Shown: piece after piece, positions 16,565-21,322 of the stretch
How the letters are laid out: every line of letters starts with the position of its first letter
Numbering within the stretch: the first letter of the stretch is position 1
Assembly (NCBI RefSeq): GCF_000018465.1
Contig: NC_010085.1
Coordinates: 1,500,001-1,532,000 of the forward strand
Source: Nitrosopumilus maritimus SCM1
GTDB taxonomy: Archaea; Thermoproteota; Nitrososphaeria; Nitrososphaerales; Nitrosopumilaceae
Direction of reading: 5' to 3'
DNA length: 32,000 nt
Translations under genes and position numbers: made by a program
The notes under the pieces: generated by a model
What the model saw: only the letters and a program-made list of their open reading frames with translations
Told to the model about the DNA's origin: nothing
Databases searched by the model: none

Positions 16565-16792
16565 TTAATGTCTAGATACATTTTTTCGTGTGTGAAATGA
16601 TTTTCGATATTTGCTTGTTCTAGGAGTCACACGTAAGACACAACTACAGCAAGGACATCTCACATCAAGGCAAATCATAAAAACATCACATACTGGACAT
16701 CGTTTTTGATTGTTTTCATATTTGATGGTTTGGCCCTTGATTTTTATTTTGAGTCTTTCACACTTACCTTTACACAAATTCATTGTAAACAT
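16565..16792 (-). CDS. Small basic Cys-rich zinc-ribbon protein (copy 1)
   Basis: 75 aa with CKGKC...CPVC...CPCCSC and then the basic tail LRVTPRTSKYRK. It is clearly homologous to 28638-28874. It is divergent from a DsbA-like gene. Confidence 0.65.
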   Translation of the reverse strand: MFTMNLCKGKCERLKIKIKGQTIKYENNQKRCPVCDVFMICLDVRCPCCSCVLRVTPRTSKYRKSFHTRKNVSRH

Positions 16793-19439: not shown

Positions 19440-19841
19440 CTATAATTGGAAGGTGCTTCCGTATACCTGTCTAAATGTACGGGGTTTTGCATCACAAAAC
19501 ACATCATCACAACAAAACTTTGTTGAAAATTTTGCCATTTCTTCTAAAATTGGCTGTAATGCTTTTCCTTTCTTGGTAAGAGTATATTCTATTCTAACAG
19601 GAGTTTCGTTGTAGATATTTTTTTCAATCAGACCAGTTTTTTCCATCTCCTTGAGTCTTGTGGATAAAGTATTTGGGTTAATTCCTTCAATAGAATCTAA
19701 AAATTCATTGAAATGATGTTGGTTCAAGATTATCATATTGCGTAATATGTGAAGAGTAAATTTCTTACCAATAATCTGAAAAGTGTTGTCGATAGGACAG
19801 CATTTGCATCCGTCTACGAGAAAATCAATCATTTGTGGCAA
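19440..19841 (-). CDS. HxlR-family winged-helix regulator with extra N- and C-terminal Cys clusters
   Basis: 133 aa (TTG at 19841 or ATG at 19832). The HxlR core is CPIDNTFQIIGKKFTLHILRNM...NTLSTRLKEMEKTGLIEKNIYNETPVRIEYTLTKKG. Additional Cys residues are CKCC at the N-terminus and FCCDDVFC in a C-terminal extension. Confidence 0.85.
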   Translation of the reverse strand: MPQMIDFLVDGCKCCPIDNTFQIIGKKFTLHILRNMIILNQHHFNEFLDSIEGINPNTLSTRLKEMEKTGLIEKNIYNETPVRIEYTLTKKGKALQPILEEMAKFSTKFCCDDVFCDAKPRTFRQVYGSTFQL

Positions 19842-19937
19842 CTTAACAAAACTTCACCTACTACTGATCACTTCACGTTCTAATTTATTAACTTAACTTT
19901 CTATACTAACTATTAGAAAATGAGTGGAGGTGATTAT

Positions 19938-20036
19938 ATGACTGACAAATGTGTATGTGACTGTAATTGTGATTGTGTTGATCACAATAACGGTGTATGC
20001 GATAAGGAGTGTAGTTGTAACTGTGGTTGCAACTAG
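19938..20036 (+). CDS. Cys-rich 32-aa peptide, metallothionein-like (not in the ORF track)
   Basis: My own translation is MTDKCVCDCNCDCVDHNNGVCDKECSCNCGCN followed by stop, with 10 Cys in 32 residues arranged as CxCxCxCxC and CxCxCxC. GGAGGTGAT (19926-19934) is a 9-nt match to the anti-SD and lies 7 nt (GGAGG core) before the ATG. It sits in a 96-bp divergent intergenic region shared with the HxlR-like gene. Confidence 0.55.
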   Translation: MTDKCVCDCNCDCVDHNNGVCDKECSCNCGCN

Positions 20037-20143
20037 CCACAATTTTTTAATTATTTTTTATAATACATATGAAACATGATAAAACATACAGATAAGATTA
20101 CAAAAATAAAATCAATTTAATGATATTCTATCAAATCATTATA

Positions 20144-21322
20144 TCAAACCAAGATACTAGTCATATACATTATCAACATACCTAAAGCAAATCCTGAGGC
20201 AACTGCAGCACTAGATAAATTACGATCACCTTCAGTTCTAATCCATTTCAAAATGGTAATAATTACTTGAAATATGGCGCCAGCCCCTATTGAGAGAAAT
20301 ATTACTGATGAGAATGGAGAGTAAACAAAGCCTCCTACCCATGCTCCAAAGATTGCAGGTGCTCCTGCAATCATTCCCATAGCTGTAAGTTTCCAAATTA
20401 CTGTTTTTTCTCTGGACATTGGAGATGCAATTGCAATTCCTTCAGTGGTGTTATGAAGTGCAAATCCCACTATCAAAAATGTACTAAAGGCAATAGAGCC
20501 CAAGCCTACTGCGGCACCTATTGCCAACCCTTCGCCAAAGTTGTGCAATCCAATTCCTATTGCAATCATTAATGCAATAGCTACCGGTTTTGTAATTCTA
20601 GAGGAATCTGATATTTTTATTAATTTTTCACCAGCATAGTACAAACCAAGAAATGAGAGTACTGAAGTTGTGGCAACAAGTAATACTCCATTGAAACTAG
20701 ATGCAAGATTTTCATCAGAGACTTCTATTGCTTCTTCAATAGAATCAATCCCTAAAAATAACAACAGTCCTGCAGTTAATGCCAAAAAGAAATGGTATTT
20801 TGACTTTTTAATTTTTTTAATAAAAGGCAACCACAAAAGTCCAATCATTACGGGAATTATTCCAACATAAGTTCCAATTATTGCAAAAAATACTGCAAGA
20901 TCTAAAGTTGGTTGCAATGCAGGAGCAGCAGCAGCAATCTCTTTTTCAAACCTAGTTCCATCGTCTACTGTGATTCCGATAATGTATGGTTCTGCATCAT
21001 TCCATTCAAATGGAATTCTTACAAGTGCCGTTTCATATCTCTCTAGAAATCTATCAGGCTCTACTGCAGCAGGATGAATTCTGTCGTTAACATCCGCCAT
21101 AACTACTTCAACTGGAATAGGGCCAGTATTCCTTACGGTTGCATGTATTTCTGATTCTAGGAAATCAACTTTTTCAATAGTTACTTCAGGTAACGGGATA
21201 CCCAAATCAAGTAAATCCGAGCCTGGTCCAAAGATGTATGCCACCATCAAAACAATAAATGCAAATGGGATTATTCCACTAGCAATAACTTTGGCCTGGG
21301 ATCTTTTCTCATCAAGTTCCAT
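20144..21322 (-). CDS. ZIP-family divalent metal permease with an N-terminal extracytoplasmic domain
   Basis: 392 aa. The ZIP signature helices are GIGLHNFGEGLAIGAAVG and GFALHNTTEGIAIASP. One N-terminal TM helix is followed by a soluble domain of about 110 aa. Its start overlaps the MCO gene end by 11 nt. Confidence 0.9.
   Translation of the reverse strand: MELDEKRSQAKVIASGIIPFAFIVLMVAYIFGPGSDLLDLGIPLPEVTIEKVDFLESEIHATVRNTGPIPVEVVMADVNDRIHPAAVEPDRFLERYETALVRIPFEWNDAEPYIIGITVDDGTRFEKEIAAAAPALQPTLDLAVFFAIIGTYVGIIPVMIGLLWLPFIKKIKKSKYHFFLALTAGLLLFLGIDSIEEAIEVSDENLASSFNGVLLVATTSVLSFLGLYYAGEKLIKISDSSRITKPVAIALMIAIGIGLHNFGEGLAIGAAVGLGSIAFSTFLIVGFALHNTTEGIAIASPMSREKTVIWKLTAMGMIAGAPAIFGAWVGGFVYSPFSSVIFLSIGAGAIFQVIITILKWIRTEGDRNLSSAAVASGFALGMLIMYMTSILV

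Follow-up and report, generated by a model that had tools for sequence, protein, structure and literature searches.

The stretch of DNA considered here, hereafter the window, comprises 32,000 nucleotides (nt) of the ammonia-oxidizing archaeon (AOA) Nitrosopumilus maritimus SCM1 (contig NC_010085.1, positions 1,500,001 to 1,532,000) and contains on its forward strand an open reading frame (ORF) of 32 codons (19938..20036, with ATG at 19938 and TAG at 20034-20036), which encodes the CxC-rich peptide MTDKCVCDCNCDCVDHNNGVCDKECSCNCGCN. A Shine-Dalgarno (SD) sequence, GGAGGTGAT, lies on the same strand 3 nt 5' of the ATG (19926..19934); the gene for a YodB-like winged-helix regulator of the HxlR/DUF24 family with 130 residues (19440..19832, reverse strand), presumably bearing the locus tag Nmar_1661, is divergent from the peptide gene across a shared control region (19833..19919); and two T6 tracts (20043..20059, forward strand) directly follow the stop codon. 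The comparisons described below indicate that the ORF is very probably a real, translated gene, and we consider it moderately probable, judging from sequence, that its product is a cytoplasmic metallothionein (MT)-like thiolate peptide, forming a two-gene stress module together with the YodB-type HxlR regulator.

A conserved CxC-rich reading frame

The SCM1 peptide has 32 residues, 10 of which are Cys (31%) and one His, with no Phe, Trp or Tyr, in agreement with the preliminary description of this DNA, whose coordinates and translation were rechecked. The residues between the Cys residues are, on inspection, K, T, N, S, D and E. Neither a signal peptide nor a hydrophobic N-terminus is present, and the only aromatic residue in any orthologue is a Tyr replacing a Cys in one locus (L032). 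One detail of the layout originally proposed applies to SCM1 alone: the linker 'VDHNNGV' with the single His is an insertion specific to SCM1, and the relatives have the layout CxCxCxCxCxC, five residues and CxCxC, without His. None of 300 first-order Markov simulations of the window gave an ORF of 25-61 residues with at least 10 Cys, the maximum being 9 Cys (once) and at least 8 Cys being reached in 12 of the 300. Because an out-of-frame stretch of the adjacent ZIP gene reaches 8 Cys in 25 codons, and because the antisense frames of the peptide ORF are largely open, Cys density alone is weak evidence; it is the comparative data that are decisive for the gene.

Orthologues were reached via the neighbours, by searching the protein encoded by the ZIP gene against genome contigs and the HxlR protein or its alignment against protein and metagenome collections. 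The ZIP protein search gave 18 Nitrosopumilus loci, one of which, from the Red Sea single cell SCGC AAA799-D11 (hereafter AAA799), has an HxlR homologue; the ORF divergent from this homologue encodes MCEECNCKCTCNCSCCRNGNCECSCE and is preceded by the same GGAGGTGAT, with 3 nt before the ATG, in an intergenic region 78% identical to that of SCM1. An intact CxC ORF of 24-28 codons at the same offset is present in each of the nine metagenomic loci with a regulator sharing 75% or more of its residues with that of SCM1, and further in a Nitrosopumilus metagenome-assembled genome (MAG) from Laguna Lejia, a Nitrosarchaeum MAG and four other assemblies, among them a TARA ocean sample with a regulator only ~71% identical. 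In total, 17 locus groups with 15 distinct peptides carry an intact ORF of 24-32 codons, the orthologous peptides having 24-28 residues with 8-9 Cys and the consensus MTNECKCTCTCNCSC-xxENx-CDCSCE. The divergent pairing with the HxlR gene is obligate, being kept in all 17 locus groups; the regulator clade includes two exceptions, one with a longer Cys-rich partner (L040) and one with a rearranged partner region (L041). The gene had been expected to escape annotation, which is borne out by the absence of an NCBI gene call at the ORF in the assemblies of AAA799, the Lejia MAG and the Nitrosarchaeum MAG and by the absence of the SCM1 peptide from the protein collection, an exact look-up of 11 peptide versions having found none of them among 15 billion proteins. 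A DNA-pattern scan of viral contigs (SD, ATG and CxCxCxC) gave no matches, so that there is no sign of viral carriage.

Over 15 sequences, the peptide frame has 0.69 synonymous (pS) and 0.20 nonsynonymous (pN) differences per site, that is, a pN/pS of 0.28, which is the lowest of the six frames; the regulator gene gives 0.17 at the same loci. Frame -1 comes close with a pN/pS of 0.32, yet it contains stops in three loci, including twice in SCM1, and frame -2, which is always open, has a pN/pS of 0.66-0.69. Purifying selection acts on the Cys residues themselves: TGT and TGC both occur in every one of the nine Cys columns, and Cys occupies 129 of the 134 cells (5 non-Cys). Length changes are in-frame throughout, in steps of 3 to 21 nt, and no Rfam family matches the locus. 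The conservation on which the preliminary description had made its proposal depend is thus found, in that the SD and the pairing with the HxlR gene are kept and the substitutions are biased toward synonymous ones.

The signals around the ORF are conserved as well. The SD, which we take to match the complement of the archaeal 16S rRNA 3' end over 9 nt, occurs as a single exact copy in the window; the match to the anti-SD complement is 9 nt long before the peptide ATG and at most 5 nt long at the 30 other ORF starts (of 31 in the window), so that the strong SD with fitting spacing noticed at the outset proves to be perfect and the longest in the window. Its motif GGAGGTGA is invariant across the orthologous loci except in one (L034), with flanking triplets free to vary. 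An in-frame upstream ATG (19920..19922, forward strand), located 18 nt 5' of the SD-led ATG, is present in all orthologous loci; translation from it would yield MSGGDY followed by the peptide, 38 residues in SCM1 and 30-38 residues across the orthologues, and two ENA assemblies are annotated in this manner (32-residue calls in L113 and L118). We read GGAGGTGA as an SD because GGA GGT has no synonymous variation and the flanking triplets vary, a pattern that favours constraint as an SD, not as Gly-Gly-Asp codons. The start codon is ATG in the orthologues except for three loci with TTG or GTG; TTG is found in L036 and L039, the latter with a spacer 1 nt longer. In every orthologue a T-rich run occurs no more than ~10-25 nt after the stop codon, and the sequence further downstream is unrelated; the T-tracts are likely to act as an archaeal intrinsic terminator.

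The shared control region and its regulator

The control region has no indels among 12 orthologous loci, whose mean pairwise identity in it is 0.81-0.91, and contains two AACTTAAC boxes (19840-19847 and 19890-19897), the A/T-rich, TATA-like element TTATTAA (19885-19891) and a site (19903-19913) occupied in most orthologues by the palindrome ATAGTTACTAT and in SCM1 by ATACTAACTAT. A 96-nt stretch between the two start codons is indel-free with 81-92% identity, and 28 of 39 columns in the promoter-proximal block are invariant in the same 12 loci. A like promoter architecture precedes the partners of paralogous HxlR genes. From these features we infer that the region comprises both promoter and operator.

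The regulator, identical to an annotated N. maritimus regulator (P0002), matches the Pfam family HxlR (PF01638) with E=4.9e-22 and 78 bits, against a cut-off of 20.8, and ArsR is absent from the nine Pfam matches listed at E<=1. Its closest solved structure is Bacillus subtilis YodB (5HS7, E=5.8e-17), followed by HypR/YybR, QsrR and HxlR, and in NCBIfam it weakly matches the redox regulators RrpA and RrpB. The residues C11/C12, C107 and C114 align with Cys6, Cys101 and Cys108 of YodB, and among 22 regulator orthologues C9 and C107 are invariant, C108 is nearly so, and C12 is present in most but not all. With the HxlR domain well above threshold and an N-terminal Cys and C107 in the places of Cys6 and Cys101, the regulator has the appearance of a thiol switch of this family. 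In YodB, Cys6 and Cys101 form an intersubunit disulfide in response to diamide, or are S-alkylated by quinones, leading to release from DNA (PMC8063818; for the HxlR/DUF24 family, see PMC3351151). Since the regulator is, as far as its sequence tells, of the YodB/HypR/QsrR type, a thiol or redox stress trigger appears at least as likely as Cu. In a neighbour-joining tree the peptide-paired regulators form one clade, and the type of partner tracks the regulator clade; paralogous regulators of marine and soil AOA have the same divergent promoter layout with different partners.

A possible metallothionein-like stress module

The composition of the peptide is metallothionein-like in every respect that can be read from sequence, as the preliminary description had maintained; the MT superfamily itself is polyphyletic. 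It is genetically encoded and smaller than 10 kDa (24-32 residues, or 30-38 from the upstream ATG); for the Cys content of about 15-35% in CxC, CxxC or CC spacing that marks MTs, it has 31% in SCM1 and 31-42% in the orthologues, with conserved CxC spacing; and aromatic residues are scarce, with neither a hydrophobic core nor a signal peptide. In the mechanism that we propose, an HxlR dimer would, in the unstressed cell, occupy the ~100-bp shared region and repress the peptide promoter, with the AACTTAAC boxes as candidate sites along with the palindrome located after the TATA-like element and before the SD. Thiol-reactive stress, for which the thiophilic metals Cu(I), Cd(II) and Zn(II) as well as oxidants and electrophiles are candidates, would modify C9/C12 and C107 of the regulator and bring it off the DNA, whereupon the short mRNA may be translated very efficiently by means of the perfect 9-nt SD, rare in SCM1. 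The 8-10 CxC-spaced Cys residues of the peptide would then sequester metal in a thiolate cluster, and the peptide may possibly serve also as a sacrificial thiol sink. Nine Cys residues are likewise found in the β-domain of mammalian MTs, which binds M(II)3 or Cu(I)6, and a stoichiometry of this kind may be supposed for the archaeal peptide by analogy.

A more specific proposal, which we advance tentatively, is that the peptide represents the first MT family of Archaea, a Cu(I)/Zn(II)/Cd(II)-thiolate peptide of 24-32 residues under the control of a YodB-type regulator, within a wider set of divergent gene pairs (divergons) composed of an HxlR gene and a mini-peptide gene. As part of the same tentative proposal, the wider AOA set would include the CxC peptide, a 28-residue His/Cys knuckle peptide, a SEC-C-like Cys-rich protein and thioredoxin. 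That copper is the specific physiological ligand is doubtful at best, and a copper role is unsupported.

Several observations weigh against the metallothionein-like reading or limit it. Some Cys residues have been lost, by replacement with Tyr in L032 and with Ser in L036 and L117/L118. One locus (L034, about 1090-1110) lacks the SD, having TGAAAATGAT in its place, and has a GTG start and one Cys-to-Ser replacement; this copy may be in decay, or its translation may begin at the upstream ATG. For the peptide in general the N-terminus is ambiguous, as either the upstream ATG or the SD-led ATG may be used. The module is patchy within the Nitrosopumilaceae, and linkage to copper genes is not conserved, the AAA799 locus being the only one of the 18 ZIP loci with the module near ZIP and multicopper oxidase (MCO) genes. 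No family was found for 11 orthologues in Pfam at E<=10, the bacterial MT model included, and the NCBIfam search and a PDB profile search at E<=10 both gave no match; phmmer against 1.84 billion representatives likewise returned nothing, the sensitivity of these searches being limited by the HMMER composition filters and the length of 32 residues, and a chimeric 70-residue query gave no candidate with shared 5-mers. Furthermore, the characterised HxlR/DUF24 regulators sense electrophiles, oxidants and aldehydes, not metals (PMC3351151).

This last point agrees with a different assignment, to which we give a low though appreciable probability, namely that the peptide is a non-metal thiol buffer, a sacrificial nucleophile or redox peptide induced through the YodB-type regulator under electrophile, oxidant, peroxide or nitric oxide (NO) stress, which would spare the thiols of the cell by becoming alkylated or oxidised itself, with metal binding being incidental. 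The regulator is closest to YodB, HypR and QsrR, which are sensors of quinones, diamide and hypochlorite (PMC8063818; PMC3351151), and is weakly matched by RrpA and RrpB; its paralogues are accompanied by genes for thioredoxin and azoreductase-like proteins, which are classical targets of YodB-type regulators. However, a peptide consumed stoichiometrically would be costly, and a dedicated gene for one is without known precedent, whereas strict CxC spacing together with a conserved two-cluster layout typifies a metal-thiolate cluster more than a simple supply of thiols; the assignment also overlaps with the metallothionein-like one, as MTs scavenge oxidants too. It is improbable, in our estimation, that the peptide is instead a regulatory partner of HxlR, acting as co-sensor or anti-repressor through metal transfer or mixed disulfides. 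Such a partnership would suit the strict one-to-one pairing with no other conserved neighbour, the tracking of partner type with regulator clade, and the tiny Cys/His peptides paired with several paralogous regulators, but the very strong SD suggests a high rate of synthesis, unusual for a regulatory subunit, and since other paralogues pair with effector enzymes, the divergent partner is more simply understood as the regulated target.

The short ORF might also be a decayed 5' fragment of the gene for a Cys-rich protein of 112-117 residues found beside other HxlR genes, or the by-product frame of an RNA or DNA element with a TGT-rich hexamer. Promoter, upstream ATG, SD-like motif and start region are common to the two genes, a weak 6-nt periodicity is present (TGTGAT x3.7), antisense frames are open, and L034 looks degraded; nevertheless, the stop position and the terminator are kept across 15 distinct versions, the pN/pS is low while TGT and TGC replace each other in all Cys columns, nucleotide-level conservation is seen in the SD, no Rfam family matches, and of the competing frames, frame -1, with a comparable pN/pS, is interrupted in three loci, and the open frame -2 has a far higher value. 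These comparative data largely refute a remnant or non-coding origin, which we regard as very improbable. Still slighter is the chance that the ORF encodes a precursor of a ribosomally synthesized and post-translationally modified peptide (RiPP) or a secreted Cys-rich peptide: the ORF is indeed small, Cys-rich and overlooked by annotation, but the whole peptide consists of the Cys-rich core without leader or signal, and the neighbourhood has no conserved gene for a modifying enzyme, a protease or a transporter, so that the idea was rejected on neighbourhood, HxlR being the sole conserved neighbour. Least probable of all, and refuted by gene order, is a Cys-codon leader peptide functioning as a translational attenuator, in which the supply of cysteine or Cys-tRNA would govern a downstream gene; a very short ORF that is dense in Cys codons and led by a strong SD may recall the leaders of amino-acid biosynthesis operons, but T-tracts come directly after the stop codon, and no co-directional gene is placed directly downstream, the next gene being convergent in SCM1 and varied, often convergent, elsewhere.

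For the metallothionein-like peptide, known systems offer partial parallels. The fungal Cu-MTs (about 25 residues with 7 Cys in Neurospora crassa and Agaricus bisporus; Cup1 in yeast) share with it the small size (24-32 residues), a Cys content of ~30-35%, CxC spacing, polar residues between the Cys residues, the lack of aromatics and a cytosolic location. In contrast, homology is not detectable, the Cys register of the archaeal peptide is CxCxCxCxCxC-x5-CxCxC, its metal binding is putative, and its gene resides in an archaeal host under an HxlR-type regulator instead of a copper-responsive factor. The resemblance to fungal Cu-MTs drawn in the preliminary description therefore does not extend to a sequence relationship with the fungal or any other known MT family in Pfam, NCBIfam or PDB, and by its sequence the peptide is not to be filed under a fungal or bacterial MT family. 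MymT of Mycobacterium tuberculosis, a small Cu(I)-binding MT that annotation had overlooked and whose inducers are metals as well as oxidative or nitrosative stress, is similarly prokaryotic, lineage-restricted, very small and Cys-rich, with the difference that metal binding of the archaeal peptide is putative; the two have no sequence similarity (NCBIfam and PDB searches) and differ in regulator type and Cys pattern. In the cyanobacterial smtA/smtB system, the gene for the small MT SmtA is divergent from that for an ArsR/SmtB repressor across a shared region of ~100 bp. The archaeal pair has the same arrangement of a small gene and a winged-helix regulator gene diverging over ~100 bp, and this smtA/smtB-type layout appears to hold for all the locus groups, with the control region free of indels; the regulator, however, belongs to HxlR/DUF24 and not to ArsR/SmtB. 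SmtA/BmtA proteins have ~55 residues, His ligands and a zinc-finger-like fold, and the archaeal peptide gives no match to the Pfam bacterial MT. A pair for comparison in Anabaena is NmtA/AzuR (PMC8790569).

With YodB, HypR, QsrR and CatR, the regulator has in common the aligned Cys6/Cys101, a divergent target, and paralogues accompanied by azoreductase-like and thioredoxin genes; unlike in those systems, the target is a mini-peptide rich in Cys, a kind not known among the targets of YodB-type regulators, and the host is an archaeon. The peptide also differs from the archaeal one-domain zinc-finger micro-proteins, in which two CPxCG-like knuckles form a single Zn site, as the CxC peptides contain neither CPxCG nor CxxC pairs, whereas the 28-residue His/Cys peptides carry one CxxCG. 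In evolutionary terms the CxC peptide appears to be closest to the Cys-rich N-terminal part of the 112-117-residue proteins of Nitrosopumilaceae and soil AOA (e.g., in N. adriaticus), whose genes, beside sister HxlR regulators, occupy the same position with the same promoter, upstream ATG, SD-like motif and start region; only the long proteins have a conserved helical domain (MWHKAAM...), and their Cys residues are fewer and differently spaced.

According to a 2013 review, MTs are absent in archaea (PMC3600143), and the literature searched contained no archaeal or AOA metallothionein, no mention of the ORF and no HxlR work in Nitrosopumilus on the gene, in accord with the claim of the preliminary description that MTs are undescribed in Archaea. 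A search of the literature for Nmar_1661 to Nmar_1663 also gave nothing on the peptide gene. What is new is thus, as judged from sequence, that a metallothionein-like peptide occurs in a further domain of life and with a new type of regulator. AOA are strongly dependent on copper enzymes, and free copper is harmful to them, as are peroxide and NO; to our knowledge, the cytoplasmic buffering of thiophilic metals or of thiol stress in AOA is an acknowledged gap. If the metallothionein-like reading is correct, the strains carrying the module, with their unusually copper-dependent metabolism, would possess an inducible cytoplasmic buffer for thiophilic metals, and the HxlR/YodB class of thiol switches would be linked to a new kind of target. 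An inducible archaeal buffer of the MT type is directly testable, because SCM1 is a culturable model strain with the conserved gene, an obvious regulator and a short, synthesisable peptide. The locus also provides a clean instance of a functional gene whose length is close to the lower bound for gene callers. Because the module is present in only some Nitrosopumilaceae, it is an accessory trait and not core copper physiology of AOA, and for the same patchiness it cannot be the general AOA copper buffer originally envisaged.

Genomic neighbourhood and related divergons

The ZIP gene (20144-21322, reverse strand; ABX13558.1/WP_012216044 of N. maritimus SCM1), called Nmar_1662 in a published study (PMC6776035), is convergent with the peptide gene, its stop codon being 107 nt from the end of the ORF. 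This distance and the divergence from the HxlR gene were correctly given in the preliminary description, as a check of the neighbouring ORFs confirmed. Further neighbours in SCM1 are an MCO and a DtxR-family regulator on the ZIP side, and a BNR/sortilin-like protein, Usp and a DsbA-like protein on the other side. The argument that the ORF is situated in a copper island fails, since the ZIP/MCO context is limited to SCM1 and AAA799, in both of which the module lies within 3 kb of these genes with different insertion points and orientations, and since HxlR is the sole conserved neighbour in all 12 loci of an all-against-all comparison of flanking ORFs. Pfam scans place the module elsewhere next to genes for EF-G, methyltransferases, ABM, glycosyltransferase and UPF0060, in other loci next to TetR/lactamase-B genes or a pyridine-nucleotide disulfide oxidoreductase, and in the Lejia MAG the ZIP/MCO locus (L013) and the module (L023) are on different contigs. 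With one of the 18 ZIP loci having the module and no conserved neighbour but HxlR, a copper island as a general property was rejected.

In three loci, belonging to the Laguna Lejia Nitrosopumilus MAG and the Nitrosarchaeum MAG, the module lies ~1.7-2.5 kb from amoA (L023, 5957-6396; L112, 4020-4670; L113, 3753-4403), separated from it by an ORF of 128 residues and a D12-class methyltransferase gene. The product of amoA is a subunit of the copper-dependent ammonia monooxygenase; this proximity may be a coincidence. Comparison of SCM1 (19440-20036) with AAA799 (L001, 2399-6982) reveals that the module has moved and flipped inside one neighbourhood, being placed between the ZIP and BNR-like genes in SCM1 and beyond the DsbA-like gene and a gene for 94 residues in AAA799, where the Usp gene present in SCM1 is missing, which suggests that the module is mobile. 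An ORF of 75-78 residues with the Cys-rich core QKRCPVCDVFMICLDVRCPCCSC (16565-16792 of the window, reverse strand; L019, 1923-2150; L036, 349-585) is conserved in SCM1, in AAA799 and at one metagenomic locus, with the DsbA-like gene on one side and an ORF of 93 residues on the other, and partly overlaps the extended DsbA ORF in AAA799.

The divergent partners of the paralogous HxlR regulators are of several types. Thioredoxin is the partner in 20 loci (among L026/L027, L044-L061, L074, L081-L087 and L100-L107), a flavodoxin-fold, azoreductase-like protein in L057 and L068, and a membrane protein of 65-82 residues in L042, L046 and L048. A second family of mini-ORFs, with 27-31 residues and exemplified by MTTQTQHKHQWTVRSNHWQCNTCGKTYG, stands beside paralogous HxlR genes whose products are mostly 62-66% identical to the regulator (L063, L069, L071, L075, L077, L079, L083, L088, L089, L091, L094, L095, L097, L099, L102 and L109); these ORFs are located ~105-125 nt 5' of the HxlR gene on the opposite strand, and T-tracts come after most of them. 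Their pattern is HxH...HWxCxxCG, possibly a zinc knuckle with one site, and one version corresponds to an unnamed protein of 28 residues from the Joint Genome Institute (JGI). The Cys-rich proteins of 112-117 residues (L025, L029-L031, L040, L050, L055, L059, L065, L073, L080, L086, L092, L096, L104, L108 and L111) begin with MECxxxxC...CxCPxC in marine AOA and contain a SEC-C-like CxCGSxKxYxxCCGC in soil AOA; they match no Pfam family, and the AlphaFold model of a related 116-residue protein is of low confidence, with a predicted local distance difference test (pLDDT) score of 59.8. The gene for these long proteins is probably the ancestor or a sister of the short CxC gene. As the paralogues are paired with thioredoxin, azoreductase-like and small Cys/His proteins, the common theme would be thiol and metal stress; taken together, the partners point to thiol, redox and metal chemistry, and to the possession by AOA of an expanded family of YodB-like thiol-stress divergons. 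HxlR regulators have been noted on proviruses in a review of thaumarchaeal mobile elements (PMC6563490), and in L025 (3689-6399) a pair of HxlR and long Cys-rich protein genes has as neighbours the genes for a ParE toxin and for a DUF87/AAA_10/TraG-like ATPase, which hints that some of the divergons ride on integrated mobile elements.

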